Part shown: positions 3,759-17,638 of the stretch, piece by piece
How the letters are laid out: each line of letters begins with the position of its first letter
Position numbering within the stretch: position 1 is the first letter of the stretch
Origin: Geobacter sulfurreducens PCA
Lineage (GTDB): Bacteria > Desulfobacterota > Desulfuromonadia > Geobacterales > Geobacteraceae
Assembly (NCBI RefSeq): GCF_000007985.2
Contig: NC_002939.5
Span: 750,001-782,000, forward strand
Length of the DNA stretch: 32,000 nucleotides
Reading direction: 5' to 3'
Program-made: the position numbers and the translations under genes
Notes under the pieces: model-generated
Seen by the model: the letters and a program-made list of their open reading frames with translations, nothing else
Database searches by the model: none
Told to the model about the DNA's origin: nothing

Positions 3759-5045
3759 CTATTGGGCCCGGTGTGGCGTGGTCGTGTCTTCGGGCCGGGG
3801 AAGGAAGAGGGTGAACAGCAGGGCGCAGACCGTGATCGACGCAGCCAGCAGGTAGGCACCGGAGAAGCTGCCGGCTGCCTTGCCGATCATCCCCGCCAGG
3901 GCAGGGCCCAAGGTCTGGCCCACGGCAAAGAAGATGGTGATCGTGGCGAAGGCCCCGGCGGCGCGGGGCGCGCCCAGGTAATCCCCCACGGCGGCCGCCA
4001 TGATGGCCGGAATGGCAAAGACCGCAAGCCCGTACAGCACGATGGAGACCACCAGACCCACCCCTCCCGGTTTCGTACCCGCGATCAGGTAGGCCGTGCT
4101 CTGCACGGCGAACACCAGCGCCAGCCCGTGGCGGCGGCCGATGCGGTCTGAAAGCGCCCCGAACACCACCCCCGAGAAGCAGCTGAAAAAACCCGCCCAC
4201 GACCAGTAGAGGCCGGCCCGGGCCTCGCTGAAGCCGAACTCCCGCACCATGGTGGTGACGATGAACGTGCCATAGATCATGAAGGTTGCGCCGAAGGCCA
4301 GGTAGAGGAGTCCCAGCCGCATCAGCAGCATGCCGTCGCCGGGCCGCTCGTGGGGCACGAGATCCTCCGGCGCCAGGGCCGCGCTCCGGCCGAGCGGTTC
4401 ATGCCCCACGTCCGAGGGATGATTGCGCACCAGCCATGCCGACAGGACCGCGACCCCCAGGGCGACGCATCCCAGCAGCAGCCAGCCGGCCCGCCAGCCG
4501 TTGGCCCCGAAGATGCCGTTCAGCCTGGGTACCAACACTCCGGCCAGTACGATGGCCGCCCCGTTGCCGGCGATCATCAGCCCTGCCGCCGTGCCGCGCC
4601 GGTCGCTGCGGAACCAGTGGCCGATCAGCACCATGGTGGGGATGTTGGCGAACCCGGTCCCCATGCCCACCAGGGCATAGAGTGCAAAGGGGGCCGCAAA
4701 GCCGCTGGAAAGCCCCATGGCCGGCATGGCCAGGGTGATCAGTGCCAGTCCGCCGCTGATCACCGCCCTTGGCTGGAAACGCCGGATGAGCCGGGGCGCC
4801 AGGATTACGGAAAGGAGGTAGCCGCAGAAATTGCCGGTCCCGATGAATCCCATGCGGTCGTAGGAGAGCCCCAGCCCCGCCTGCATGGAGGGGAGGAGCA
4901 TGGTGTAGGCGTAGCGGGCCAGGCCGATGCAGGCGAAGATGATCAGGAAGCCTACGGCCACGATGACCCAGGCGTAGTGGAATCGCCGGCCGGCCGCCGG
5001 GACAGTGCCGGGTCGGTCGGCATGTCGGTCGGTGGGCGTCGTCAC
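3759..5045 (-). CDS. MFS transporter
   Basis: The track ORF (641 aa) runs upstream across the two SMR genes in another frame. GTG at 5045 is preceded by GAGGA at 5-nt spacing and gives about 428 aa. The protein starts ...RRFHYAWVIVAVGFLIIF and has about 12 hydrophobic helices typical of MFS. Its SD overlaps the sugE-like stop codon, so it is probably in the same operon. Confidence 0.75.
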   Translation of the reverse strand: MTTPTDRHADRPGTVPAAGRRFHYAWVIVAVGFLIIFACIGLARYAYTMLLPSMQAGLGLSYDRMGFIGTGNFCGYLLSVILAPRLIRRFQPRAVISGGLALITLAMPAMGLSSGFAAPFALYALVGMGTGFANIPTMVLIGHWFRSDRRGTAAGLMIAGNGAAIVLAGVLVPRLNGIFGANGWRAGWLLLGCVALGVAVLSAWLVRNHPSDVGHEPLGRSAALAPEDLVPHERPGDGMLLMRLGLLYLAFGATFMIYGTFIVTTMVREFGFSEARAGLYWSWAGFFSCFSGVVFGALSDRIGRRHGLALVFAVQSTAYLIAGTKPGGVGLVVSIVLYGLAVFAIPAIMAAAVGDYLGAPRAAGAFATITIFFAVGQTLGPALAGMIGKAAGSFSGAYLLAASITVCALLFTLFLPRPEDTTTPHRAQ

Positions 5046-5053
5046 CTGAGTCC

Positions 5054-5374
5054 TCAGGCTGGCGAAGAGAGCTTGAGCCCGATGATGCCGGCGACGATCA
5101 GCGCAACACTGATCAGCCGGGCCGGGTTGGCCGGTTCCCCGAACAGCACGATCCCCAGGAGCACGGTGCCAACGGCACCCACCCCCACCCAGACGCTGTA
5201 CGCCGTGCCCACCGGCAGCGTCCTCATGGCGATCTCCAGCAGCCAGAAACTGGCGATCATTGCCAGTACCGTCAGGACCGTCGGCCAGAGCCGGGTGAAC
5301 CCTTCCGTGAATTTCAAGCCGATGGCCCAGCCCACCTCGAACAGCCCTGCGAGAACAAGAATTCCCCACGTCAT
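5054..5374 (-). CDS. sugE: SMR-family guanidinium exporter, SugE/Gdx-like
   Basis: 106 aa with 4 TM helices. It aligns closely by eye to E. coli SugE ([31 protein letters not shown]...[17 protein letters not shown]...IIGLKLSS), including the conserved membrane Glu. A mini-ykkC riboswitch lies directly upstream. Confidence 0.9.
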
Positions 5375-5393
5375 GATGTCGTCCTTTCCGATT

Positions 5394-5440
5394 CGTGGGG
5401 TCGTCCCCGTGGATGTTCGGGCGGCGGAGTCGTCCCCGCC
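5394..5440 (-). promoter_or_regulatory. Guanidine-II (mini-ykkC) riboswitch candidate
   Basis: On the minus strand there are two tandem hairpins, each with an ACGA tetraloop closed by G-C pairs. The first is GGCGGGG-ACGA-CUCCGCC (5423-5440). A 14-nt linker follows. The second is (CAC)GGGG-ACGA-CCCC(ACG) (5394-5411). The SD/start GGAAAGGACGACAUCAUG follows 20-30 nt downstream. This architecture and its position upstream of a SugE/Gdx gene match the known class. Confidence 0.7.
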
Positions 5441-5449
5441 GTCGGTCGG

Positions 5450-5782
5450 TCAGTGCGTCGCCGATGTGGAGCAGAGATTGAGAACCAGTACGCCGGCAAT
5501 GATCAGCAGAATACCGAAGACCGCCGGCAGATCGAGCCGCTGCCCCATGAAAACCCAGGCAACCACCGCGACCAGCGCCGTTCCCAGGCCGGACCAGATC
5601 GCATAGGCAATGCCGACCGGGATCGCTTTCAGGGTCAATGACAGGAAGTAGAAGGCGGAGGCATATCCGGCGACAACCACGCATGATGGCCAGAGCCGGG
5701 TGAACCCTTCGGCCGACTTGAGCGCGGTTGTCCCGGCAACCTCACTGATGATCGCCACCAGAAGATACAGCCATTTGTGCAT
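5450..5782 (-). CDS. emrE: SMR-family multidrug/quaternary-cation efflux protein, EmrE-like
   Basis: 110 aa. It is very similar by eye to E. coli EmrE ([24 protein letters not shown]...GIAYAIWSGLG...GQRLDLPAVFGILLIIAGVLVLNL). Confidence 0.85.
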   Translation of the reverse strand: MHKWLYLLVAIISEVAGTTALKSAEGFTRLWPSCVVVAGYASAFYFLSLTLKAIPVGIAYAIWSGLGTALVAVVAWVFMGQRLDLPAVFGILLIIAGVLVLNLCSTSATH

Positions 5783-6025: not shown

Positions 6026-9000
6026 TCAGTGGGGTCGTGCGGTGAAGGAATAACGCCGGGCCACGGAGGAGGTGTCGTGGAGAGTGGCCAGGAGCGTTGG
6101 CTCGTTGCCGAGCCCCTGGGGCGCGACGCTGTTGTGCAAGGCCTTGAGCGCACCCAGGAGTGGTGCGGCTTCGGTGCTAGCGGTGACGCGGGCGTCTTCG
6201 CCCAGGGCGGCAATCAGGTCGACCAGCCCCTTGCGCTCCTTGGGTTCGGCGAGGTTGCCGGCAGCGAGGATGGCCAAGTGGTCGAAGTAGACGGGGGCGA
6301 TGTCCGGCGCCCCGGTGACAATGGCCAACTGGGTCAGGAGAGCCCGGTAGGCTGTCTGTTCCCCCTTGTCGCCCACCAGGGTCTCGTGCTCGTGGAGCGG
6401 CAGGCTGGTGCGGATCAACCGGTAGACGTTGACGAAGCGCAGTCCCCGACGCGGGGTGCCCCCGGCATGGGGGGCAAGTTCGGCCATGAAGGCGGTTTCA
6501 TGGGGGGTGAGGGTCATGGTGCGGGCCTCGTGCTCGCGGAAGGACTCCCCGCCGCTGTCGGGCTGAGACGGCGCAGCGGGGGGCGGGGACGCGACCGGTG
6601 CCTCTGAGGGCGCTACTTCAGTCGCTCCGCCCGCCCGCTCTGTCGGCGGTTGGAGCGAAGGCGCCGGCGGGGCGGCGTTCGGAGCCGGTTCGGGCGACAG
6701 GGGTGCTTGGTCGGCCTGGACTGTCGACTCGGCTGCCACGATCCCCTTGATATAGTTCCGGCAGGCGTCGGCATCCATGGCGCGCACCCAGTAGGGAAGC
6801 TGGAAGATCTTCTCCAGGTAATCCTGGGACGAGGCGGCCCGCTCCCGGTCTGAGTTGTTGGGAGCGGTGCGCCGGTCGGTGGCATCATGCCGTGCTTCGC
6901 CGGCGGGGGCGCCGGGGCGGGCGGGTGCCGTGGCGCCGGTTCCGGGGATGATGACGGTTTCGGCCAGGAGCTCCGGGTAGACCTCCTTGAGGGAGCGGGA
7001 GACCCAGCGGGCGTCCACGGCCACGACGACCACGAAGAGGGGGAAGCAGAGGAGCAGGTGGATGGCCTGGAGGACCTCCACGACCTTTTCGGGCGGGCAG
7101 CGGTCCAAGTCGTCGATGTAGAGGATGATCCGCTCGAACAGGCGCAGGGATTCGGCGTCGAAGGTGGTGGAGGCCCGGAGGGCGGCGACCTCCTCGTCGG
7201 TCAGCACGTCGCCGGAGCGGGCGATGAGTTCTTCCACCCTGCGGACGTAGTCGAGCCGGGCCCGCTCATATTCCTCGGCCAGCTCCCGGTCGCGATCGGC
7301 GTCGGCCATGAGCTGGGCCAGCTGGCCGAAATCCTTGCGGATGGTGGCGATGATACCCAGGTGCTTGGCGTAGTCCCCGCTGACGACCTTGTCGCGGATG
7401 AAGGCATTGAGCCGCCCCCGGGCCGTGGCCCCCTGGAAGTCACGGGCCGCGTCGGCGGCGCGGCGGTCGGCATCGGCCAGGCGGCGCTCGGCCTGCTCCA
7501 CGTCGCTCCTGAGCCGCGTCGCCTCGCGCTCGGCATCGGTGAGCAGGGCCGCTTCATTGCTGTTCTTTCTGAATTCCTCGGTCCGCTCGGCAATGGCCGT
7601 TTCCAGGTTGGCGCGGAAGCCTTCGAGGGTGTCCAGGGCGGTGGCGGTCCGCTTGAGGGCCGTACCCGCGAACCCGGCCACGGAGGCCATGACCGAGGAG
7701 AGTCCCAGAACGGCGGCGTTCACCTCCTTCAGCCAGGAGAGCACCTCTGTCCGACCCAGGATGTCCCGGAACCAGACCACGGCGACCGGCGCCGCCACGA
7801 GGATCAGGGCCAGGGCCGCCAGCCACCGGGGGCGGCCGAGCGTGGCCATGGCGCTCCGCCCGAGGGTCCGGGCCCGTCCGGCCTGGGTGGTGGTTTCCTG
7901 GAGCACTTCGCTCAACTGGCGGGCCGAGGCGGAGAGTTCCGGAACTCCCAGGACCCGGCCGGCGCGGTCGATGGTCTCGCGCGTCTCCCGGTCCTTGCCC
8001 AGGGTCGTGCCCACGGCGGTCCAGAATTCGCCTGCCGTTGCCACGGCCTGGCGGGCCAGAGCCGTCTCGAACCGGGCCCGGACGGTTTTCAGGTTTTCTT
8101 CGGCCTCCTGGCGCTGGCGGCGGCGGAGCACCAGTTCGTCCATGGCCTCCAGCCTGAGGGTGCGGGAGGTGGAGAGGTGGTCGAAGAGAAGATCCACGGT
8201 CTCGTTGGGGTTTTCGGGGCGCTCCTTGAGCCAGCGGTCCAGTTCGGTGAAGATGTAATCCACCAGGCTGGCCCACAGGTTGGATTCCACGTAGTGCCAG
8301 GCATTGAAGCGGATCTGGACGATGTTGCCGTGGAAGGGGCCGTCACTGTCCGCATCCCGGGAAATCCGGGCCACATGCTCGTGCATCAGCTTCATGAAGA
8401 AGGTCTTGCCCGACCCCCATTCGCCGAATACCCCGATGGAGAGGGGCGGGCGGATGGCGCGGCCCGCGGCGAGGCGGGCAAAGGCCCGGGCCTCCTGCCG
8501 GACGTCCATGAGGTCCGTGGCCGAGGTGGGATCGTCGGCGGTGAACCGGGCAATGAGGACGTCGGGGCCGGCACTGACGGGCGGGACGGGGGCCTCGGCG
8601 GCAAAACTCTTGAAGATGGTGTCGGCGGGAGGAGGTTCCGGGGGCGGCGCCTCGGCCTGCTCCAGGGCCAGGGAGACCCAGGTGGAATCCTCCGACGGGA
8701 AGGCCCGCTGGAGGAAGTCGAGGGTGCTGCGCTGCCAGGCGGCGATGTCGACCCCCCAGCCGATGAGCTGGCGCCGGTGGTAGTCGGAGAGGCGGAAGGC
8801 GAGGGCCGCCAGCAGGTGGCGCGTCCCCAGGGGGCGGGGCTCGGCACCGTCGCGGGTGGCGAGCCGCAGCGCCGACCCGAGGATGTCGCGCACCGACGAG
8901 GAGTAGAACTCCCTGGCATCGGGGAGGGTGCCGGCGGCTGCCTGCTCCTCAACCCTTGGGCGCATCGCCTCGGATGTCTGCACCAGGTCGGCGATAGCCT

Positions 9001-9220
9001 CGGCCCGTTCTCCCGTTTCCCGGGCGTAGCGGGTAAACCAGGCGCCGGTCTCGTCCTCCACGAGAATTGCCCCCACGAGGATGGAGGTGAAGTTCACCGG
9101 CGTGCCGTCCCCCCGGATGGCGCCGGCCCATGCGGCAAGGCGCATGAGCCGGTCGAGGGACGGTTCGTAGGCCGCTTCGGGGGGAAACGGCGCCAGGGGG
9201 GCGGTTTCGGGCTTGTCCAT
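6026..9220 (-). CDS. KAP-family P-loop NTPase with transmembrane insert (1064 aa)
   Basis: Walker A is GVFGEWGSGKTFF (about nt 8405-8428). Walker B is ILYIDDLDRCPPEKVVEVL (about nt 7103-7126). About 430 aa are inserted between them, containing coiled-coil-like Arg/Glu/Ala segments and two hydrophobic helices (WLAALALILVAAPVAVVWF and AAVLGLSSVMASVAGFAGTAL, about nt 7655-7831). This is the hallmark KAP NTPase architecture. A Pro/Ala-rich linker and a C-terminal domain follow. Confidence 0.85.
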   Translation of the reverse strand: MDKPETAPLAPFPPEAAYEPSLDRLMRLAAWAGAIRGDGTPVNFTSILVGAILVEDETGAWFTRYARETGERAEAIADLVQTSEAMRPRVEEQAAAGTLPDAREFYSSSVRDILGSALRLATRDGAEPRPLGTRHLLAALAFRLSDYHRRQLIGWGVDIAAWQRSTLDFLQRAFPSEDSTWVSLALEQAEAPPPEPPPADTIFKSFAAEAPVPPVSAGPDVLIARFTADDPTSATDLMDVRQEARAFARLAAGRAIRPPLSIGVFGEWGSGKTFFMKLMHEHVARISRDADSDGPFHGNIVQIRFNAWHYVESNLWASLVDYIFTELDRWLKERPENPNETVDLLFDHLSTSRTLRLEAMDELVLRRRQRQEAEENLKTVRARFETALARQAVATAGEFWTAVGTTLGKDRETRETIDRAGRVLGVPELSASARQLSEVLQETTTQAGRARTLGRSAMATLGRPRWLAALALILVAAPVAVVWFRDILGRTEVLSWLKEVNAAVLGLSSVMASVAGFAGTALKRTATALDTLEGFRANLETAIAERTEEFRKNSNEAALLTDAEREATRLRSDVEQAERRLADADRRAADAARDFQGATARGRLNAFIRDKVVSGDYAKHLGIIATIRKDFGQLAQLMADADRDRELAEEYERARLDYVRRVEELIARSGDVLTDEEVAALRASTTFDAESLRLFERIILYIDDLDRCPPEKVVEVLQAIHLLLCFPLFVVVVAVDARWVSRSLKEVYPELLAETVIIPGTGATAPARPGAPAGEARHDATDRRTAPNNSDRERAASSQDYLEKIFQLPYWVRAMDADACRNYIKGIVAAESTVQADQAPLSPEPAPNAAPPAPSLQPPTERAGGATEVAPSEAPVASPPPAAPSQPDSGGESFREHEARTMTLTPHETAFMAELAPHAGGTPRRGLRFVNVYRLIRTSLPLHEHETLVGDKGEQTAYRALLTQLAIVTGAPDIAPVYFDHLAILAAGNLAEPKERKGLVDLIAALGEDARVTASTEAAPLLGALKALHNSVAPQGLGNEPTLLATLHDTSSVARRYSFTARPH

Positions 9221-9247
9221 GGGGTTCTCCCGGGTTGTCAGTTACGG

Positions 9248-9634
9248 TTACCGGTTCCTGCCGCCGCCGGGCCCCATCCCCTTGCCGGGGGCACCCATTC
9301 CGGCCGGACCCATGCCGCCGCCCGGCACCGGCGGTTCGTCGGGAAGGGTCACTCCCCGCTCCCTGGCCCTCTCTTTCATCCGCTCGTGGTGCTCTTTCCT
9401 GATCTGCTCCCGTTCCTGCACGGTCTTGGCGGCCCGCATCCTGGCCCGGTATTCGGCCCGTTCCTTCCTGGTCATGAGCTGGCTGCCGTAGACCCGTTCC
9501 TGCTCCTTGGCCTCGGTCCGGACTTTTTCCCGGACGTTCTCCCTGACGCGCTCCTGGTCCGTTGCCGGCGCGACTCCGGCGACCAGGGAGAGTATCCCCG
9601 CCGCGACGGTTGCGATGAGTGCCTGCTTCTTCAT
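9248..9634 (-). CDS. Secreted helical protein with Gly/Met/Pro-rich tail (ZraP/Spy/CpxP-like, tentative)
   Basis: The signal peptide is MKKQALIATVAAGILSLVAGVAPA. The core is charged and helical (Arg/Glu/Lys-rich) with an LMTRKE (LTxxQ-like) motif. The C-terminal GGGMGPAGMGAPGKGMGPGGG resembles the Gly/Met tail of ZraP. It starts 16 nt after the EEP gene and ends 27 nt before the KAP gene. Confidence 0.45.
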   Translation of the reverse strand: MKKQALIATVAAGILSLVAGVAPATDQERVRENVREKVRTEAKEQERVYGSQLMTRKERAEYRARMRAAKTVQEREQIRKEHHERMKERARERGVTLPDEPPVPGGGMGPAGMGAPGKGMGPGGGRNR

Positions 9635-9650
9635 GGCTGCCTCCTTTCGT

Positions 9651-10658
9651 TCATGGGTTCGGCCCGGTGGTCACCAGGAGCGAGACCGGCCGGTGATCGC
9701 TGGTCTGGCTGTCCTTGGGGAGCCCGGCGTTGGCCAGTTCGTGCACCTCGTGTTCCACCTTGCCTGCATGGGGCTTCACCTGCCACGGCAGAGAGCCGTT
9801 CACGAGCCCCTGGGTGAAGAGAATGTGATCCAGAAGAATCTCGGGGCGCCGGTCCGGCTGGACGAAGTCCCTGAACCGGACAGTCCAGCAGAGTTCGTCG
9901 GGGATGTCGAAGAGACCATGGTTAAGGAACCGGCTCGTGGCAAAGACGTTGCCCTGGATATTGGCGATGAGATCGAAGAAGAGGTATTGCTCCTCGAAGT
10001 ACTCCTTGCCCGGCCCGTCGTTGAAGTCGCCCAGCACGAACAGGGCGGGGTTGCCCACTTGCCGGAATTTGGCGTCGATGTACGCGCGGACGTTGGCGGC
10101 CTCGGTGGCCATCTTGATCCGGGCCGTGAGGGCCTCGCGGATGAATCGCTCCCGTTCGTCGCGCCAGAGCCGCTCTCCCTGGTTGATGAACTTGCTCTTC
10201 AGGTGCAGGCCGATAAACTCCACGCGCAGACCGTTCCAGTCCAGAATCAACACTTGGGGATGCCGATAGTGGCGGTGTGTCCCCTCCGTGAATTCGCCCC
10301 ACAGATGGCATGTCCATGATACCCCGGCAAAGGCATCCCATGTGCCGACGGGAAGAAGCGATGCCCGGGCCGCCAGATCCTGTCGGACGAGGAACCATAT
10401 CCACTGGTCACCCCTCGTGGCATAGTTGCCGTCGGCCGCCTTCACCGCCACCCACTCGCCGTCCAGCAAGTCGTTGGCAACAAGATCGATCCCCGCTTCG
10501 CCGGCTGGACCCTCAAGCAGACAGAGAATGTCGGGCGCCAACTCCCTGATCTCCCGCACCACGGCATCCCGTCGACGGCGTTCTTTGGCGGTGGGATGCG
10601 CTCTGGTCAAGCGTTCCAGATGCGCCACGTTCCAGGAGGTAATTTTGACTGTGCCCAT
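9651..10658 (-). CDS. Endonuclease/exonuclease/phosphatase (EEP) family protein
   Basis: 335 aa. EEP motifs occur in the right order: N-terminal KITSWNV, LCLLEGP (catalytic Glu), LGDFNDG and a C-terminal SDHRPVSL. There is no signal peptide. SD GGAAGGA lies upstream. Confidence 0.8.
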   Translation of the reverse strand: MGTVKITSWNVAHLERLTRAHPTAKERRRRDAVVREIRELAPDILCLLEGPAGEAGIDLVANDLLDGEWVAVKAADGNYATRGDQWIWFLVRQDLAARASLLPVGTWDAFAGVSWTCHLWGEFTEGTHRHYRHPQVLILDWNGLRVEFIGLHLKSKFINQGERLWRDERERFIREALTARIKMATEAANVRAYIDAKFRQVGNPALFVLGDFNDGPGKEYFEEQYLFFDLIANIQGNVFATSRFLNHGLFDIPDELCWTVRFRDFVQPDRRPEILLDHILFTQGLVNGSLPWQVKPHAGKVEHEVHELANAGLPKDSQTSDHRPVSLLVTTGPNP

Positions 10659-10731
10659 GGGATCCTTCCGTGCCGCGCGGCCACCCTGTCGGCGGAATGC
10701 CGGGAAGTGGTCCCCCTTGCGGCTGCCTGCG

Positions 10732-11235
10732 TCACTTGGCCTTCAGTTTCTCTCGATGTTCGTACAGCTTGCGATACTGTTCTGCCGACGGTTTCTGGAC
10801 GACCGGCCTAAAGACCGTGATGGACCTGACCCGCTCGTCGGCCGGGTCGATGACGAATTCGACCCCCTGGTCCGCATAGGTGAGAACGATGACGCTCCCT
10901 TTCATGGTCTTTTCTCCCCTGCCGTAGAATCGCAGTACCTCGGCCAGGGTGGCGCCGGCCTTCAAGCGGTTACGCTCTACTTCATATCGGGGCGATGAGA
11001 CGGTGATCCTGCCGATGATGCCGCCCGCCGTGGTGATGCCGATTCCCTTGCTTTTTCGGATAGTGCGAAGCGTGCGGTTGTCCGGTGCCGGATCGCCGAT
11101 GCTGAAACGTTCGATTCTCTGGCCCGGGACAATGATTCCTCCGCCTGATTCGCCGCGCACCCCGTCGGACGGAAGGCACGGGTCCAGGCCGAGGAGGGCG
11201 ATCCCTACGACGATGGCAGACAATCCCTTGCGCAT
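10732..11235 (-). CDS. Putative exported/lipoprotein of unknown function
   Basis: 167 aa. The N-terminal hydrophobic signal is MRKGLSAIVVGIALLGLDPC. It starts 15 nt after the upstream membrane-protein gene. I recognise no family. Confidence 0.55.
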   Translation of the reverse strand: MRKGLSAIVVGIALLGLDPCLPSDGVRGESGGGIIVPGQRIERFSIGDPAPDNRTLRTIRKSKGIGITTAGGIIGRITVSSPRYEVERNRLKAGATLAEVLRFYGRGEKTMKGSVIVLTYADQGVEFVIDPADERVRSITVFRPVVQKPSAEQYRKLYEHREKLKAK

Positions 11236-11250
11236 GATTTCTCCTCAGGC

Positions 11251-12846
11251 CTATGGTGGGCCGTCCCCTCCTCTTTCCGCAGCCAGGGCCACATTCTCAT
11301 GTTTCGTCGTACCTGCTTGCTGACGAAGCAGACGTATGATGCCGGGGATTTTTTCCGGCCTGACCGGTTCCACGCTCATATAGCTATAGGCGCTGCGTTC
11401 CAGCATGATAATCCTGGTGCTGCCGGCATCCGCCTCTTCCGGGTGTTCGAAGGCCCCGATGATGATTTCCCGTCCCTTGGTCGGTCCGAGGATGTAGAGT
11501 TCCGCCCCCCGCTGCCGGGCCTCGTCGAGTTTTTTCCTCAAGGGGTGGACTCCCTTGTCCTCCCCCGTAAAGACGATGTCTTTCAAGCGCTGGACTTTGA
11601 ATTCGAACTTGAACCGGCCGTAGGCGGTGGGGAGCGTGATGAGCACAGTCAGAAAGAGGAGGAAGATGACGACAAAGTAGCCCCCCTCCCAGAGGGGGAG
11701 ACGGATCAGGCGTGTACTGTTCAGCAACAGATAGACGAGGATGCCGATGAGCACCCAGAAGGAGTACGAGATCATGAACTGGCCGAAGGCAATGGGTTTC
11801 AGGCTGCCGAGGGATGTGCATATCCGGCTGGTATCCTCATCACCGGGGACGAAGAAGGCAGAGATATTCTCCCGCAGTCGCGTCAGGCGTCTCATGGATT
11901 CGCCGGCAAGCTCGTAGTTCGCGGGAATGAGGACCAGCGAAGAGGTGTCCCCCTCGCTCGTGAGGTGACCACTCAGCAGGCTGCGGAAATCCTGGAGGGT
12001 GAGGTTGACCCGCTCCCTCAGCCGCTGCTGCAGGGCATGGCTCAGCCAGACGTTGCGCAACGCCACATAGGTCTCCGATTTTTCGAAGTCAGCGTCTGAG
12101 CGGAATGGCGACGGTTCGCGGATGGAGAACCGCTTCTGGAACACCTCCAGAGAAAGCGGCGTACCTTCCCGTCGTGAGATTTCGGCCAGGGCATAGTTCA
12201 TCCAGTGTAGGGTCGGCTCCACCCCGAAGGTCAGTTCCTCGTAAAAGCGCTGCTGGAACTCGTCGGCCCGTTCGAGGGCACCCTTGCGGGGCAGCAGGAT
12301 GAGAACCATCCCTCCCAGGTCCTTGGAAAGGTCGGCCAGCACGCGTTCCTGGCACACGATGTCGGAAGAAAGCTTCCTGACGAACCAGCCCGAGGTGAGG
12401 ATGAAGGCTGCCGAGAGAGCCAGCGTCAGGAAAATAATATAGTTGATCCGATACCGGAGGATCAGGGAGACGGAGCGGGTGATCCGCCCCTTGCCGGCGG
12501 GACGTTCATTAGCGGCTTTGCCCCCACCGACGGGAACCGTCAACAAAAGCAGGGCCATGAGGATGACAAAGAAGGGGATCAGCCGCCAATCCTGAAAAAA
12601 GGTGAAGATGTCCTGAAAGAACTGAAAACCCGCCTCGGTAACGTACTCGTCGGTGTAGTGGACGACGCCGTAGAGGTTGTAGGCCCGCAGGCGTGCCACG
12701 ATGATGGCATTGCCGATCCAGAAAAAGAGGATGGCGCCGCCGCCGATGCCCCCAACAACAAGGCCGACGCTCTTCAGTACTTCAAGAATGGCGGTCAGGT
12801 CGACCCGTGGGGAGGTTTGGTTTGGCTGTTGCGTCTTCCCGTGCAT
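11251..12846 (-). CDS. Five-TM membrane protein of unknown function
   Basis: About 531 aa from ATG 12846; ATG 12891 is an alternative and neither has a good SD. Three N-terminal TM helices are followed by a soluble region of about 200 aa. Two more TM helices (FGQFMISYSFWVLIGILVYLLL, YFVVIFLLFLTVLITLP) and a soluble tail of about 120 aa follow. I recognise no family. Confidence 0.6.
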   Translation of the reverse strand: MHGKTQQPNQTSPRVDLTAILEVLKSVGLVVGGIGGGAILFFWIGNAIIVARLRAYNLYGVVHYTDEYVTEAGFQFFQDIFTFFQDWRLIPFFVILMALLLLTVPVGGGKAANERPAGKGRITRSVSLILRYRINYIIFLTLALSAAFILTSGWFVRKLSSDIVCQERVLADLSKDLGGMVLILLPRKGALERADEFQQRFYEELTFGVEPTLHWMNYALAEISRREGTPLSLEVFQKRFSIREPSPFRSDADFEKSETYVALRNVWLSHALQQRLRERVNLTLQDFRSLLSGHLTSEGDTSSLVLIPANYELAGESMRRLTRLRENISAFFVPGDEDTSRICTSLGSLKPIAFGQFMISYSFWVLIGILVYLLLNSTRLIRLPLWEGGYFVVIFLLFLTVLITLPTAYGRFKFEFKVQRLKDIVFTGEDKGVHPLRKKLDEARQRGAELYILGPTKGREIIIGAFEHPEEADAGSTRIIMLERSAYSYMSVEPVRPEKIPGIIRLLRQQAGTTKHENVALAAERGGDGPP

Positions 12847-12873
12847 GGGCACGCTCGCAGTGCAACAGGGTGT

Positions 12874-12908
12874 CGGGCGCCCCCACCGCATTGCCGGAGG
12901 GGCGCCCG
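12874..12908 (-). terminator. Strong GC stem-loop between the 758-aa gene and the 5-TM gene (terminator or processing/stability element)
   Basis: On the minus strand, CGGGCGCCCC pairs with GGGGCGCCCG (a perfect 10-bp stem) around a loop of about 15 nt. There is no U-tract, so intrinsic termination is uncertain. Confidence 0.4.
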
Positions 12909-12913
12909 GCAGT

Positions 12914-15190
12914 CTATGCCGGTTTCAGGTCATTGCAGATCCGCACCGGCCACAAGGCCTCGCGCCAGTGGGGGCCGCCCGGCGTGTAGGTACGGTCCTG
13001 GACGCGGAGCTTGAAGACGTACACGCAGCATTCGCCTCGGGGCAGGAGCAGGTCGGCCGGGACCGGGTAGCCCACCGATGCGCTGCAAAGCGGATCAATG
13101 GCCCGCAGGTCGAACTGGGCCAGGGTGCCGAAGACCGCGGCAGGAAGCGGGTTGGCCGGGTCGCAGGGGGTGCAGGAGGTGCCCGGATCGCCCACGCGGT
13201 TCGTGCCGAAGAAGCAGGGAGTCCCCATGCTCCAGGAAACGGGGATCTGGACTTCGGTCCCCCCCTGCTTGCTCACCTTGACCCAGTAGAAGTCGAAGTT
13301 GTCGTTGGGGCGGGTGAGTGGGAGGGCCGGGTCGATGTACTCGTCCCAGGCGATGCCCGAAAGCGGCAGGTTCCAGGGTACAGCGCAGTCGGGCGGGGTT
13401 GCGAAGGCGCTGACGCGGATGTCGGCGCAGCGGGGCACCGCATCGATCCGGATCATGGCACAGATGGGCTTGTTGTCGATCCAGACCTTCTGGGTGTCGT
13501 AGTAGAGGGTGCCCCCCGTGTCCTCCACCACCAGGCGCAGGGTGACCAAGCCACTCAGACCGCAGGTGGAGACGTGGGTCTGCCAGCAGGAGGGTGAGAG
13601 CCGGGCCTCGGGAACGTTCATCAGGCAGTAGGGGGGGAAGGGGACCGGCACCACGCAGTCGGTGACCCAGGAGGCGGTCAGCACCGACGTGTCCTTGCGC
13701 ATGTTCATGTCCCGGTACTGCCAGACCGTGTTGTACTCAACCTTCCAGATGTTGATCCAGCCGCCGGTGGTGGGGTCGGTCTCGAAGCCGGGCTTGTAGT
13801 CGATGAGGTAACGCTTGATCTTCCGCCCTTCGCACCCCCCCACGAAGGCGCTTCCCCAGATGGAGAGGCATTCGCCGAAGGATATCTCGTGGATCCCCGA
13901 GGGTCGCGTGCAGAGGGCCGGCACGGTCTCCACGAACATGGCCGCCGGGTCGTAGGCGGTGGTATCCAGGGTGAAGGCTCCGTCAAAGCCCAGGATGCGG
14001 ACATCCTGCTTGAAGAGGGAGAAAGTGATGGTCCTGACGCAGGTGGTTCCCTGGACCCCGTATACGGTGAGGCGGATGGTGTAGGCCCCTTCGTCCCGGG
14101 CCGTGGTGTCGAAGTAGGCCAGGAGTCCGCCCGCCACGGGGGAGTTTCCCTGGGTGCCGCCGCCCGGCGGGATGGGTGGATAGTGGAAGTCCGAAGCGTG
14201 CCAGGCAATGCCGTCGCGGGACCATTCCAGCACGTAGCGGAGGAAGCCGCCCCCTGTGGCCGTCCCCTTCACGGCCACCACCAGGGCCTTCAGGTCCGTG
14301 TTGACCTCTTCGGCCACGCAGCCGATGGGGTCGGTCAGTTCGCAGACCAGGGGCTGGAAGCAGCGGCGCAGGCAGCGGAAGTAGGCCACCAGGCAGCGAA
14401 CCAGATCGATGAGCGAGCGGGAACGCCCCAGGCACCAGCCGAAGCGGAATGCGCAGATGCACCAGCAGCGGCAGAGCCAGAAGCGCGGGTCCTTGCTCAG
14501 TTTCTCGAATATCTCGGCCCCCATGAGGAGCCGGGCGTTGTCCACCGTGAGGAACTTCTCGAACAGGGCCTCGGCCGCGTCGCCCCCCGAGTGGCAGTCC
14601 ACCTGGCCCGACACGGCCCCGTCGGCCAGTTCCATGGAGTGATCCATGGCCTTGGCCTCCTGCACCAACCAGGGCCTGAAGACCTCGGCAAAGCCTGCCG
14701 TGAGCTTGCGGAAGTCGGCCCGCTCCTCCGGCGTGGGCTGGCGGCCGGTGGGATCGTTCTGGAAGAGGCGGCGGATGCAGAGCCAGTAGCGGTAGAGGTA
14801 ATAGACCGAAACCGGGAAGGTGCGGGAGCGGGAGAGGAGCCAGCCGAAGCGGAGGCAGCAGAGGATTTTGCGCAGGCACCACTGCCACTGGTCGATGGGG
14901 CCCAGGGCTTCCCGGGCCTGGGGGGTGAGGGTTCGCAGGGCCACGTCGGCGGTGGCCAGGGGGGCGAAAAGCCGGTCGGCGAGAAGCTGCTCGTCCTCGC
15001 AGCTGTGGGGTTGCTTTTCCGCCACGGCCACGAGCCGCTCGGCGGACTCGCTCAGTTTGAGTTCTTCTTCGAGAATGGGGCGCCAAGCGTCCAGGAGCTG
15101 TTGGAGGACGAACTGGAAGTCCTCCCGGTTAATGTCCTCGTTCAGAAGCGCCTTGACGGTCTCCGCCGACAGTTTCGTTTCCTTTTCCAT
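12914..15190 (-). CDS. Large Cys/Trp/Arg-rich protein of unknown function (758 aa) with an internal duplicated motif and probable beta-sandwich C-terminal modules
   Basis: SD AAAGGAGAG lies 7 nt upstream of ATG 15190. The long ORF is coherent and has no signal peptide. The N-terminal ~290 aa are helical and contain two copies of a W.C......RFGW.L.RSR...L..Y..C.RR.FQ motif. The C-terminal ~470 aa contain segments like AYTIRLTVYGVQG, LVTLRLVVEDTGG and VYVFKLRVQD, which resemble Ig/PKD-like domain strands. Confidence 0.75.
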   Translation of the reverse strand: MEKETKLSAETVKALLNEDINREDFQFVLQQLLDAWRPILEEELKLSESAERLVAVAEKQPHSCEDEQLLADRLFAPLATADVALRTLTPQAREALGPIDQWQWCLRKILCCLRFGWLLSRSRTFPVSVYYLYRYWLCIRRLFQNDPTGRQPTPEERADFRKLTAGFAEVFRPWLVQEAKAMDHSMELADGAVSGQVDCHSGGDAAEALFEKFLTVDNARLLMGAEIFEKLSKDPRFWLCRCWCICAFRFGWCLGRSRSLIDLVRCLVAYFRCLRRCFQPLVCELTDPIGCVAEEVNTDLKALVVAVKGTATGGGFLRYVLEWSRDGIAWHASDFHYPPIPPGGGTQGNSPVAGGLLAYFDTTARDEGAYTIRLTVYGVQGTTCVRTITFSLFKQDVRILGFDGAFTLDTTAYDPAAMFVETVPALCTRPSGIHEISFGECLSIWGSAFVGGCEGRKIKRYLIDYKPGFETDPTTGGWINIWKVEYNTVWQYRDMNMRKDTSVLTASWVTDCVVPVPFPPYCLMNVPEARLSPSCWQTHVSTCGLSGLVTLRLVVEDTGGTLYYDTQKVWIDNKPICAMIRIDAVPRCADIRVSAFATPPDCAVPWNLPLSGIAWDEYIDPALPLTRPNDNFDFYWVKVSKQGGTEVQIPVSWSMGTPCFFGTNRVGDPGTSCTPCDPANPLPAAVFGTLAQFDLRAIDPLCSASVGYPVPADLLLPRGECCVYVFKLRVQDRTYTPGGPHWREALWPVRICNDLKPA

Positions 15191-15243
15191 CCGTGGACTC
15201 TCCTTTCATCCGCATCCGTGCGGACATACGCGCATCCGGCGCG

Positions 15244-16053
15244 TCAGGCGTACCGCAGGTACCGCTCTGCCACCCATTGCTGCTCGGTTGGGTGGATACG
15301 GACCCAGCCGTCAGCCGTTTCGAATACGTTGACCCGGACCCCCCGCTTGAGCCCTTTAACCACCGGGAACTCAGTTCCCCTGCCTGCCCGGACGTTGAGG
15401 CTCGAGGCCACAACCTCGCCGCTCTTGAGCGGAACCGGCGCACTGGGTGCGGTCCCCCCCGTGAGCTGGGCCAGGGTCTGGGCCACCAGGGGGATGAACG
15501 TTGCCGCAGCCGCATCCATGGAGTTGCCGCCGAAGAATGCGGTGCCTGGGCAGGTCTTGGTGGTGCCGGATCCGCCCGTGCGCTTGCCGGAGTTCAGGTC
15601 GTACCAGTGGTGATACACTATGGAGTCGGTGTTGGGCGTCAGGTTGAACTCCCGGCAGAGCAGGGCGTTGATCTTTACGATGGCGTCCCGGTGAGCCGGG
15701 GTCATGGTGTCGCCGCCCGCATCGAAGTTGCCCAGGTTTTCCAGGCAGATACCCTCTTGGTTGGCCCCCTTGATGCCGCAGGGGACCTTGTCGATGGAGC
15801 GGCAGACCGCCACGGTTCCGTCGGGGAACGATGTCAGGTTCTGGGCGATCTCCGAGAACCCCCGCTCGGCCATGTGGAAATGCTCCATCCCCTCCAGCAG
15901 GCCGAAGTGGTTGCTCCCTGTGAACTGGACGTAGCCGGGCAGGTAGGTATGATGGTTCTGAACGAGCTTGACGGAGCGGCTGAACCTGGTCTCCAGCAGC
16001 CACTGGTCGAACTCGTCCATGGTGAAGAGGAGGAATTTGCCCTTTTTCTTCAT
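15244..16053 (-). CDS. N-acetylmuramoyl-L-alanine amidase (Amidase_2/PGRP, T7-lysozyme type) fused to SH3b domain; no signal peptide
   Basis: The zinc-amidase motif order is VQNHHTYLP ... GANQEGICLENLGNFD ... IVYHHWYD...KTCPGTAFF. The C-terminal segment GEVVASSLNVRAGRGTEFPVVKGLKRGVRVNVFETADGWVRI is SH3b-like. SD GGAGGAG is present, with a 15-nt gap from the caspase gene. Confidence 0.8.
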   Translation of the reverse strand: MKKKGKFLLFTMDEFDQWLLETRFSRSVKLVQNHHTYLPGYVQFTGSNHFGLLEGMEHFHMAERGFSEIAQNLTSFPDGTVAVCRSIDKVPCGIKGANQEGICLENLGNFDAGGDTMTPAHRDAIVKINALLCREFNLTPNTDSIVYHHWYDLNSGKRTGGSGTTKTCPGTAFFGGNSMDAAAATFIPLVAQTLAQLTGGTAPSAPVPLKSGEVVASSLNVRAGRGTEFPVVKGLKRGVRVNVFETADGWVRIHPTEQQWVAERYLRYA

Positions 16054-16068
16054 GGTGGTCTCTCCTCC

Positions 16069-16902
16069 TCAGACGGTGAACGGCCTTTGTTTCAGGAATG
16101 CCGGGTCGGGCGTCCCCGCGGTGAAGAAATTAGGGGTTTGGTCCGGCGGCATCCGCCTGACTATGGCCTTGTGGAAGGAGCGGTAGCTCCCTTTGTAGAG
16201 GCCGTTCTTCCATACCCGGAGCAACTGCCCCGTGAACGCGCCGTTGAAAGCACCATCCTGGGAGAGTTGGTTGTCCTGGCAGCCGGAGATGAGGAGGATG
16301 GAGGCCTTCACGTCGGCCAGGTCCACTTTTTTCGTTTTTTGCTGGATCGTGTCGTAGAACTCTCTGTTGGCCCGGTAGGTCCGCATGGCCACGCTCTGGG
16401 GCATGGCCCGGTACCGGATTTCCCCCTCGTCCGGACCGGCGGAGCGGGCCGCGGTGGTACCGTTGTAGTAGGCCATCTTCACCACGGTGCCGCTGTGGCA
16501 GCTGTCGGAGAAGACCAGCACCCGGACCCCGGCGGCGAATTTCCCGAGCAGGGCGTAGAGTTCGTCGTCGATCAGTTCGCCGTCGAAGAGGCACCAGGTC
16601 TCGTCGACGCCGTCCGGCTCGTCGTTGGACGTGTCCGGTACCTGCCCCCCGTGGCCGGAGTAGCTGAGCATAAAGATGTCGCCCTTGCCGAGGGCCTTGG
16701 CGGCCTTGCCGATGGCATCGATGACCTTGGCCCGGGTGGCCGCCTTGGTCATGAGCGTGGTGACGGCAAAGCCCCTCTCCGCTGCGATGGCCGCCATGTC
16801 CTCGGCGTCGGCTTCGCAGGCGTTGAGTTTGCCGGCCCAGCCTCCGTAATGTTTCGGGTCAACGGCGTTAAGACCGAGTGCGAGTGCTATTCCCTTTGGC
16901 AT
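16069..16902 (-). CDS. Caspase-family (peptidase C14) protease, catalytic domain only
   Basis: ATG 16902 is preceded by AAGGAGA; the 33-codon in-frame extension in the track ORF lacks an SD. The catalytic His lies in MLSYSGHGG and the catalytic Cys in VFSDSCHSG, with orthocaspase-typical spacing. 277 aa with no extra domains. Confidence 0.85.
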   Translation of the reverse strand: MPKGIALALGLNAVDPKHYGGWAGKLNACEADAEDMAAIAAERGFAVTTLMTKAATRAKVIDAIGKAAKALGKGDIFMLSYSGHGGQVPDTSNDEPDGVDETWCLFDGELIDDELYALLGKFAAGVRVLVFSDSCHSGTVVKMAYYNGTTAARSAGPDEGEIRYRAMPQSVAMRTYRANREFYDTIQQKTKKVDLADVKASILLISGCQDNQLSQDGAFNGAFTGQLLRVWKNGLYKGSYRSFHKAIVRRMPPDQTPNFFTAGTPDPAFLKQRPFTV

Positions 16903-17163
16903 GATTTCATTCTCCTTTTTGACCGGCTGATAGTGTGGGTGCGGAGCATTGGCAGGGGGGGCGCGGTGATGCCGGAAAGGGTGCCGGTGAGGGGAGAACA
17001 CGGGGGTGCCGGAGGCGGTGACATGGAGCCCTCCCTGGCTCGCGTGGCGCGTCCCTGCGCAGCGCTGTTCTTCGTGAGGTTGTCGCCGATTGGCGGTACC
17101 GCCTGCCGCGGCTTTTCGCCTGTGAACGTGGAACGGTTGATTGGTGTCGCTTAACTATGCGTA

Positions 17164-17191
17164 AGTATATCCCGTCGGCTGCCGGATGCAA
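17164..17191 (-). promoter_or_regulatory. Sigma70-type promoter candidate for the caspase operon
   Basis: The minus strand reads TTGCAT-N16-TATACT, with the -35 at 17186-17191 and the -10 at 17164-17169. This implies a 5' leader of about 255 nt before ATG 16902. Confidence 0.4.
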
Positions 17192-17315
17192 GGGGTGAGC
17201 AAAAAAAACGCTTTGTGTAACGGTATGGAATGATTCGATTTTACTCCTGGAGTCGCCGACGCGGTTCGTGCCGGCAGGAAGTGCATAACCGGCCGGGTGA
17301 GACGCTCCCCGTTTC

Positions 17316-17324
17316 TGGTATAAT
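17316..17324 (+). promoter_or_regulatory. Extended -10 promoter element (TGGTATAAT)
   Basis: A perfect TATAAT lies at 17319-17324 with an upstream TG. It sits about 45 nt before the small membrane-protein gene. The -35 is weak. Confidence 0.4.
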
Positions 17325-17368
17325 GAAGTACATCGCCGGGATGGTCCGCCCGCAAAAGGAGCTTGTTG

Positions 17369-17638
17369 ATGATGAAGCCGGTCTACCTCTTTTTTCTCCT
17401 GGTGTTCGTCGTTCCAGGGGTGACGGGGGGGATTCTCGCCGCGAACCGGGCACGGAACGTCTTTGTCTGGAGCCTGCTGAGCGCCGTCTTCCCCATCTTT
17501 CTGCTGGTCATTTATTTCCATAAGCCCCTGCGGGAGGTGGAGGGGAAATTCCGGCGCTGTGGCGGCTGCGGCGAGTTCATCCCCTGGCGCGAGACGGCCT
17601 GCAGATACTGCGGCCGGGAGCAGCCTACACACCCCTGA
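17369..17638 (+). CDS. Small membrane protein with C-terminal zinc-ribbon (CxxC...CxxC)
   Basis: AAGGAG lies 7 nt upstream of ATG 17369. The protein has two hydrophobic helices followed by RRCGGCGEFIPWRETACRYCGRE. Confidence 0.6.
   Translation: MMKPVYLFFLLVFVVPGVTGGILAANRARNVFVWSLLSAVFPIFLLVIYFHKPLREVEGKFRRCGGCGEFIPWRETACRYCGREQPTHP

Follow-up and report, generated by a model that had tools for sequence, protein, structure and literature searches.

What does a stand-alone caspase-like protease do when it is encoded immediately ahead of a cell wall hydrolase that resembles a phage endolysin? This question is raised by a 32-kilobase (kb) stretch of the Geobacter sulfurreducens PCA chromosome (NC_002939.5, positions 750,001 to 782,000), hereafter the window, to which unlabelled coordinates refer. 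On its minus strand, gene 1 (GSU0716; 16069-16902) encodes a caspase-like protease of 277 residues, recognized by PF00656 and by identity to PDB entry 3BIJ. It is followed by gene 2 (GSU0715; 15244-16053), which encodes a 269-residue protein with amidase and SH3b domains assigned by Pfam, and by gene 3 (GSU0714; 12914-15190), which is known from the open reading frame (ORF) list and a family search and encodes 758 residues, 34 of them cysteines. A preliminary description made from the sequence alone had treated all three genes as one protease-licensed lysis or abortive-infection module. The analysis presented here favors a smaller unit, in which the caspase and amidase genes would form a two-gene conflict or programmed-lysis cassette, of the kind in which a protease is linked to a death effector. 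The probability of this reading is put at roughly 45%, with co-function, cleavage, trigger, lysis, and any anti-phage role inferred from sequence and gene neighborhoods.

The product of gene 1 is identical at 277 of 277 residues to 3BIJ, a structural-genomics crystal-structure entry for "uncharacterized protein GSU0716", and the next PDB matches are metacaspases. Peptidase_C14 (PF00656) is matched over residues 16-260 with an E-value of 4e-27, and both His84 (in SGHGG) and Cys135 (in DSCHSG) are invariant across 15 homologues. The protein consists of the C14 domain alone, lacking sensor and repeat domains, and judged by its residues it is a catalytically complete, stand-alone GSU0716-type C14 protease, or orthocaspase, presumably of the Arg/Lys type. 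Its family comprises thousands of stand-alone members of 277-278 residues at 60-75% identity. Some plasmids from Bacillus, rhizobia, Deinococcus, and Rhodococcus carry members as well, and on a phage-like contig one with 65% identity directly follows genes for terminase and portal/MuF (L196:7983-8822; loci labelled L are neighborhoods of relatives that were fetched for comparison). In the literature searched, 3BIJ serves only as a modelling template for metacaspases, and no function or partner of GSU0716 is described; a search for GSU0711-0715 and GSU0717 found no mention of them. Equating GSU0716 with LcCaspase or with the effector-less Escherichia coli caspase of Evans et al. was considered and rejected, as the sequences belong to clearly different families. 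Elsewhere among the sequences, protein P0125 is a fusion of caspase and barstar domains (PF00656 and PF01337).

Gene 2 combines Amidase_2 (PF01510; E 3e-9, residues ~26-170) with SH3_3 (PF08239; E 1e-8, residues ~210-267). The residues H34/H35, H148/H149, K166, and C168, which correspond to the zinc ligands and catalytic residues, are invariant across 40 homologues. A scan for transmembrane (TM) segments found no hydrophobic N-terminus, signal peptide, or TM segment, and the N-terminus of the amidase family is conserved from residue 1. The AlphaFold2 model (predicted local distance difference test score, pLDDT, 90.3; predicted template-modelling score 0.89) finds its top Foldseek matches in phage and clostridial amidase endolysins (LysCS, LysC, Ts2631), PGRP-LB, and T7 lysozyme, with AmpD in 44th place, and PHROG lysis families also match the protein. 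The catalytic domain of gene 2 shares 50-59% identity with amidases from seven viral contigs. On one of these (L187) the amidase, 59% identical over 194 residues, lies in a lysis cassette of tail fibre, holin, amidase, and holin. By its residues and relatives, gene 2 is thus a catalytically complete endolysin-type amidase of phage-endolysin ancestry. The architecture of about 265 residues with Amidase_2 and SH3b is a cellular one, retained in Geomonas, Nitrospirales, Thermodesulfovibrionales, Acidobacteriota, and Bacteroidota (55-65% identity). The proteins of genes 2 and 3 are 98-99% identical to G. sulfurreducens entries. At the junction of the catalytic and SH3b domains lies a semi-conserved PL[RK][ST]AEV (K210), with R or K at position 210 in 23 of the 40 sequences.

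The two enzyme genes are separated by 15 nucleotides (16054-16068) that hold the Shine-Dalgarno sequence of the amidase. Such a gap is consistent with co-transcription, and on this evidence the caspase and amidase genes are probably co-transcribed. A further 53 nucleotides (15191-15243) separate the amidase from gene 3, the 3' part of this spacer, CACGGATGCGGATGAAAGGAG, comprising a conserved leader of gene 3 and its Shine-Dalgarno sequence. The three ribosome-binding sites, AAGGAGA, GGAGGAG, and AAAGGAGAG for genes 1 to 3, each stand 7-8 nucleotides ahead of the ATG. These spacings and sites are as the preliminary description gave them, and so are the bare C14 domain with its His-Cys dyad and the zinc-ligand set, SH3b domain, and missing export signal of gene 2, whose likeness to endolysins is borne out by the Foldseek matches and the L187 cassette.

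The proposed limits of the transcription unit fared less well. A promoter candidate had been placed upstream of gene 1, where a consensus scan of the minus strand found no sigma-70-like promoter; what can be spotted by eye is a weak promoter-like TTGCAT-N16-TATACT at 17191-17164 (minus strand). The non-coding region concerned (16903-17362) includes the caspase Shine-Dalgarno sequence and is shared with a divergent gene of 91 codons on the plus strand (17363-17638), and no Rfam or riboswitch element was matched in the caspase leader of about 255 nucleotides. Downstream, the GC-rich hairpin that had been taken as the other boundary does exist just 3' of the gene 3 stop codon (~12873-12910, minus strand; -38 kcal/mol, z = -1.9). 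However, it has no U-tract, the terminator scan did not call it, and the first ATG of the next ORF (12891) falls within it. With no U-tract and with this ATG inside it, the hairpin does not establish where the unit ends downstream; four further genes on the same strand come after gene 3.

The case for a shared function of the two enzymes draws mainly on what lies beside their relatives. Among eight independent cellular contexts of the amidase family, a caspase-fold protease is directly adjacent in three, and the protease belongs to a different family each time. In Geobacter (the window and L053) a C14 protease is immediately upstream. In Geomonas paludis (L171) the amidase is followed by a 572-residue protein, an alpha/beta-hydrolase-C14 fusion whose N-domain is homologous to the validated effector LcHydrolase. 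In L173 a CHAT protease is immediately upstream, with PLD nearby. Of the remaining contexts, one contains a subtilisin, a protein family here called family X, and proteins of no known kind (L174), another contains family X and likewise unknown proteins (L175), and in a third the amidase lies between cmr6 and family X plus patatin, within a type III-B Cmr locus (L176). In L184 it adjoins PIN7. Co-occurrence of the trio, which the preliminary description had put forward as a check, is confined to close Geobacter relatives. At the level of families, adjacency of caspase-fold protease and amidase in three of eight contexts lends the link between the two enzymes some support. A functional tie between caspase-fold proteases and the amidase family is plausible from this pattern.

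Family X links the two enzymes further. Its members have 300-430 residues, three TM segments, and the C-terminal motif LAVSLGAPFWFDLLNK, and have no match in Pfam, PADLOC, or PHROG. They lie beside the amidase in three loci (L176:8847-9851, L174:2921-4210, and L175:5414-6400) and directly after a GSU0716-type caspase in L111 (1231-2139), with a remnant in L094 (2805-2990). Family X is a candidate holin-like partner, and the network of caspase, family X, and amidase is the strongest argument, if an indirect one, for placing both enzymes in one kind of system.

The same contexts bear on a physiological alternative, in which the amidase would be a cytoplasmic or regulated autolysin, concerned with AmpD-like muropeptide recycling, wall remodelling, or autolysis for biofilm and extracellular DNA, and the caspase a housekeeping or stress protease. 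Amidase_2 enzymes of the AmpD type are cytoplasmic, the window is flanked by housekeeping genes, and conservation across phyla (60-75% for the caspase, 55-65% for the amidase) is unusually high for conflict genes. However, AmpD follows endolysins, PGRP, and T7 lysozyme in the fold comparison, and a recycling enzyme would not be expected to carry an SH3b domain for wall binding. The patchy distribution, which includes plasmid, phage, and island locations, and neighbors that include CRISPR (clustered regularly interspaced short palindromic repeats), patatin, PIN7, and PLD genes also argue against such a role, which is considered improbable.

Caspase neighborhoods were surveyed from the other side in a Pfam census of 148 ORFs within ~1.75 kb of the caspase at 66 loci. 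These surroundings are rich in degradative enzymes: SLT (5) and a second C14 (5) are the most frequent, followed by papain-like C1 (4), PG_binding_1 (3), LysM (2), GH46 (2), S8 (2), and EEP (2). Further fusions of C1 with alpha/beta-hydrolase domains occur in a 16-locus cluster, alongside C1 and alpha/beta-hydrolase ORFs that stand alone, and in L118 and L165 a GSU0716-type caspase directly follows an alpha/beta-hydrolase-C14 fusion. Four of the five SLT proteins come from a single lineage and have signal peptides, so the SLT neighbors count for little. Several other wall enzymes resemble the window amidase in having no signal peptide. A GH46 and PG_binding_1 protein adjoins the caspase in L084 and L092, a PG_binding_1 and CHAP protein followed by an Rz-like spanin stands beside it in L093, a PG_binding_1 protein overlaps it at stop and start in L179, and a CHAP/TIGR02594 protein accompanies it together with a C1 peptidase in L181. 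The caspase family thus recurs beside unrelated types of signal-less wall hydrolases or wall binders.

Some of these loci contain whole clusters of signal-less degradative proteins. In L084 (6648-12728), and also in L093 and L096, the caspase is surrounded by GH46 and PG_binding_1, C1 peptidase, EEP nuclease, a small TM protein, and a zinc phospholipase C. From their domains, L084-type clusters would together act on wall, protein, DNA, and lipid.

In an alternative reading, the signal-less hydrolases (caspase and amidase here, and C1 peptidase, EEP nuclease, and phospholipases elsewhere) would not be suicide effectors but an exported toolkit of antagonism, cargo or effectors that reach other cells through a contractile injection system, a type VI secretion system, vesicles, or explosive lysis. 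It is suggested by L089, where the caspase lies just downstream of phage-tail or baseplate-like genes (Tail_P2_I, Mu Gp48) in a setting like that of extracellular contractile injection systems; L084, and L196 with its terminase and portal/MuF genes, could also be read in its favor. Association with tail genes is nevertheless confined to 1 of 87 caspase-family loci. The 32-kb window contains no injection-system, type VI secretion, or immunity-like genes, and no small periplasmic immunity gene adjoins the amidase. Delivery to other cells is therefore judged quite unlikely.

If the two-gene cassette is instead a programmed-lysis module, its action might be pictured as follows. Some trigger would activate the GSU0716 protease, which would then either license the amidase or kill in parallel with it as an executioner of broad specificity. 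For licensing, the candidate cut would be the basic site PL[RK][ST]AEV at the junction of the catalytic and SH3b domains. The amidase would pass through a membrane lesion made by another factor, reach the periplasm, and act as executioner by destroying the peptidoglycan. In other genomes family X may supply the lesion, and in G. sulfurreducens this could possibly be done by a non-conserved GSU0713-like protein with five TM segments that is encoded beyond gene 3.

Such a module would have several relatives among known systems. In bacterial gasdermin operons, a stand-alone caspase-like or subtilisin protease is encoded beside a lytic executioner. The Geobacter pair shares this arrangement and the protease families, but PADLOC detects gasdermins neither in the window nor around the amidases, and the executioner here would act on the wall and not on the membrane. 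Phage holin-endolysin cassettes such as that of L187 share with gene 2 the homologous catalytic domain, the SH3b-type wall-binding module, and the missing signal peptide, which implies that the amidase, like a phage endolysin, depends on a membrane lesion. They differ in that no holin, spanin, or phage structural gene is found among the window ORFs by Pfam and PHROG over 32 kb, as the preliminary description had also reported, and the neighbor of the amidase is a protease in place of a holin. They also differ from a cellular amidase family whose architecture is fixed over many phyla. The Pfam and PHROG annotation, together with the absence of any tRNA from the 32-kb window, rules out a prophage or lysis cassette there.

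The closest parallels are proteolysis-gated death effectors. This is an established logic that employs trypsin-like, caspase-like, and subtilisin proteases, usually fused to a sensor, and ten protease-associated effector families have been listed: MBL, alpha/beta-hydrolase, Pepco, EACC1, PCaspase, bGSDM, CATASP, MPE, CalpT, and Csx30 (Evans et al., bioRxiv 10.1101/2025.11.14.688446). As in the antiviral modules of Evans et al. that pair LcCaspase with the alpha/beta-hydrolase zymogen LcHydrolase, the neighbor of a caspase-fold protease gene encodes a hydrolase whose unchecked activity would be lethal. Protease classes shared with these modules (caspase-like, CHAT, and subtilisin) recur beside the amidase family, and in Geomonas the immediate neighbor of the amidase is a fusion of an LcHydrolase-like domain with C14. 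The ten effector families do not, however, include a peptidoglycan amidase, and literature searches found no peptidoglycan hydrolase effector, so that the composition still appears undescribed, as had been suggested. Unlike LcCaspase, to which it is not close in sequence, GSU0716 is a bare C14 domain without a sensor. The target of the present effector lies outside the cytoplasm, which makes a membrane step necessary.

A further parallel is the SAVED-CHAT cascade of type III-B CRISPR, in which the stand-alone caspase PCaspase is activated by another protease and serves as an executioner of broad specificity (bioRxiv 10.1101/2023.06.23.546230). The caspases that follow alpha/beta-hydrolase-C14 fusions in L118 and L165 and the amidase family member in the Cmr locus recall this cascade. 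In contrast, the window has no CHAT, SAVED, or CRISPR gene, and the catalytic dyad is H84/C135 in GSU0716 as against H79/C146 in PCaspase. PADLOC returns only a weak "caspase" match in the window, along with QatA/PifA-like matches for a KAP NTPase, and membership of a known defence or gasdermin system was rejected on this basis. By its gene content, the pair differs from known protease-effector systems in having no sensor, no recognizable membrane-lesion gene, and an effector target outside the cytoplasm.

Comparison of related Geobacter loci opens a further alternative, that the genes are coincidental neighbors. In G. hydrogenophilus (L046), a gene for an EPAH-repeat protein lies directly ahead of a gene-3 paralogue (gene 3'), and neither enzyme is present. 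In Geobacter sp. L053, a caspase and an amidase, 73% and 80% identical to those of the window, stand between the EPAH-repeat gene and gene 3'. About 25 nucleotides before gene 3, GCACGGAYGCGGARAYGAAAGGAG, are conserved in the window, L046, and L053 regardless of which gene lies upstream. L046 and L053 differ only by the caspase and amidase, and by synteny the cassette is an insertion ahead of the conserved leader of gene 3. A third locus, L070, has in order a secreted barnase (8284-8772), a caspase, and, directly after it, gene 3, with no amidase. The differing cargo of the three loci indicates that the site is a variable hotspot and that amidase and caspase are separable. The best explanation of this synteny is that the region consists of independent accessory cassettes lying side by side at a variable hotspot in Geobacter chromosomes; the trio of caspase, amidase, and gene 3 occurs only in close Geobacter relatives. 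The EPAH-repeat protein itself (L046:9110-9907, L053:7412-8203) has 263-265 residues, five REPAHF/W repeats, and no Pfam match.

Taken further, caspase, amidase, and gene 3 would be independent mobile accessory genes in one integration hotspot, a toxin or defence island, with no relation of protease and substrate and with each product acting by itself or with partners whose genes lie elsewhere. This is possible, though on balance doubtful. It fits the changing content between the 91-codon gene and gene 3 (EPAH in L046, EPAH with caspase and amidase in L053, barnase with caspase in L070), the solo caspases on plasmids and on a phage-like contig, and the ability of a caspase-like protease without an effector to defend alone. 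On the other hand, the 15-nucleotide spacing suggests a single transcript, and adjacency of the amidase to three caspase-fold families recurs, along with the common partner family X. The numbers of SLT, PG_binding_1, and LysM neighbors (5, 3, and 2 of the 148 ORFs) are also seemingly above chance, a comparison for which no background frequency was computed and to which the single SLT lineage with signal peptides contributes.

A number of observations weigh against the two-gene cassette as a working unit, and several of them are shared with the coincidental reading. The exact pair is not conserved outside Geobacter, an amidase of the window type being found in none of the 87 caspase-family loci, and L070 retains the caspase without it. 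The eight amidase contexts are a small sample; five have no caspase-fold protease, and in one (L177) the amidase is solo amid metabolic genes. Genes in toxin or defence islands can come to lie side by side even when their products do not interact directly. No sensor (STAND, SAVED, TIR, or the like) is fused or linked to the caspase, and no recognizable holin or pore gene is present in the window. Furthermore, a Rosetta-stone fusion of amidase and protease was sought and rejected. A search of 1.84 billion representatives returned 2418 amidase relatives, and the sequences of the long ones were inspected by eye, with no domain search. In the 13 listed representatives that exceed 400 residues or have an N-terminal extension before the amidase domain, and in 4 more of 366-383 residues, this inspection showed neither an amidase-protease fusion nor a caspase motif. 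These long relatives look like multi-domain Firmicutes-type lysins (NAGPA-like, PG_binding_1, papain-like N-domain). The papain-like N-domain of such lysins has marginal similarity (E 0.005) to the caspase-associated C1 peptidase.

Gene 3, which had been described as an orphan and as a membrane-breaching substrate of the protease, belongs to a large family of its own. A protein search gives at least 157 homologues at 46-84% identity, and a scan of species-representative genomes gives 80 loci at 37-62% identity. They extend over at least 10 phyla, including Pseudomonadota, Acidobacteriota, Chloroflexota, Nitrospirota, Verrucomicrobiota, Actinomycetota, Gemmatimonadota, Bacteroidota, NC10/Rokubacteria, and Deferribacteres; viral contigs yielded none. 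Members are about 750 residues long and share some 25 invariant cysteines along with a pair of helical hairpins of the CRCWC type, and the family profile matches neither PDB sequences nor Pfam. The AlphaFold2 model (pLDDT 90.8) has a helical N-domain (1-277) followed by tandem immunoglobulin (Ig)-like beta domains (282-758), for which Foldseek returns only generic Ig arrays (adhesin, S-layer, tail fibre). A role as a membrane or pore protein was rejected on the basis of this model, these generic matches, and the absence of any predicted TM segment.

The neighbors of gene 3 are equally distinctive. A DUF1360 membrane protein is encoded immediately downstream in 67 of 83 loci, and a protein of about 100 residues with the pattern MxCCGQ...VRGPxxGxxYxFS is third in the operon in 64; no other conserved neighbors were found across the 83. 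Both partners are absent from the window (tblastn E > 0.5). Gene 3 adjoins a caspase in two of the 83 loci and an amidase in one, all in Geobacter or Desulfuromonadales relatives.

The earlier three-gene model has in its favor the tight spacing on one strand. In it, gene 3 and/or the amidase would be cut by the caspase, gene 3 would open the membrane, and the wall would then be degraded by the amidase. Within Geobacteraceae a caspase is also found ahead of two gene-3 types that are only 46% identical to each other (in the window, L053, and L070), which could hint at lineage-specific coupling. The model is largely refuted by the neighborhood data: 81 of the 83 loci have neither protease nor amidase, whereas 64-67 carry DUF1360 and the small protein, and L046 has gene 3' without either enzyme. 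Together with the helical and Ig-array model without a TM segment and the conserved leader that gene 3 keeps for itself, this leaves the three-gene model very improbable. Gene 3 is most likely a bystander, a separate unit derived from a widely conserved three-gene system. That pan-bacterial system, which is very conserved and has no assigned function, is a lead in its own right. In some Geobacter (L046:12874-14412), the gene-3 paralogue is followed by a radical S-adenosylmethionine/SPASM enzyme, and in L045 by a 126-residue peptide with a Cys-rich C-terminus, CPFCTTCITSCLECVTSCTACVACS, that resembles the precursor of a ribosomally synthesized and post-translationally modified peptide.

A broader proposal, advanced tentatively and thought rather unlikely, would take GSU0716-type orthocaspases, signal-less wall hydrolases (Amidase_2-SH3b, PG_binding_1-CHAP, and GH46-PG_binding_1), and family X as interchangeable parts of an undescribed class of protease-linked programmed lysis, or abortive infection, with a domesticated phage endolysin as the death effector. 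If this were true, peptidoglycan hydrolases would be a new effector class in proteolysis-gated immune logic. For the two-gene cassette alone, a pair working as a unit would mean that phage endolysins have been taken over by bacteria as suicide or defence effectors associated with a protease, a class missing from current catalogues of protease-effector systems, and would give GSU0716 (3BIJ), for years "uncharacterized", its first functional context. It also raises the question of how a cytoplasmic wall hydrolase crosses the membrane on command, to which family X is a candidate answer.

The remaining genes on the minus strand continue the run that begins with the caspase, which consists of six ORFs with short gaps and a seventh after 430 nucleotides. 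After gene 3 come the 546-residue GSU0713-like protein, whose five TM segments are predicted by the TM scan (11251-12891), a 167-residue ORF with no assigned identity (10732-11235), an EEP nuclease/phosphatase of 335 residues (9651-10658), and a KAP-family P-loop NTPase of 1064 residues (6026-9220), the last two assigned by Pfam, PADLOC, and NCBIfam. The KAP gene, the sole NTPase gene in the window, lies 7 kb downstream of the caspase and is not conserved with it. This block (6026-12891), taken here as context, is specific to G. sulfurreducens: tblastn matched it in none of 170 loci, and the related Geobacter loci lack it. It may be a conflict system of its own. Homology between its EEP nuclease and those beside caspases elsewhere was rejected, the local match being only marginal.

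Outside this run, Pfam shows the 32 kb to be ordinary chromosome, with genes for ResB/CcsA, a major facilitator superfamily (MFS) transporter, a PAS hybrid histidine kinase, CheD, PPK2, LpxC, MreB, and an Nuo/Mrp subunit. A Guanidine-II (mini-ykkC) riboswitch scores 44.8 bits, above its gathering score, at 5397-5441 on the minus strand. It lies inside the long ORF 3759-5684, so that the MFS transporter gene probably begins only after the riboswitch.

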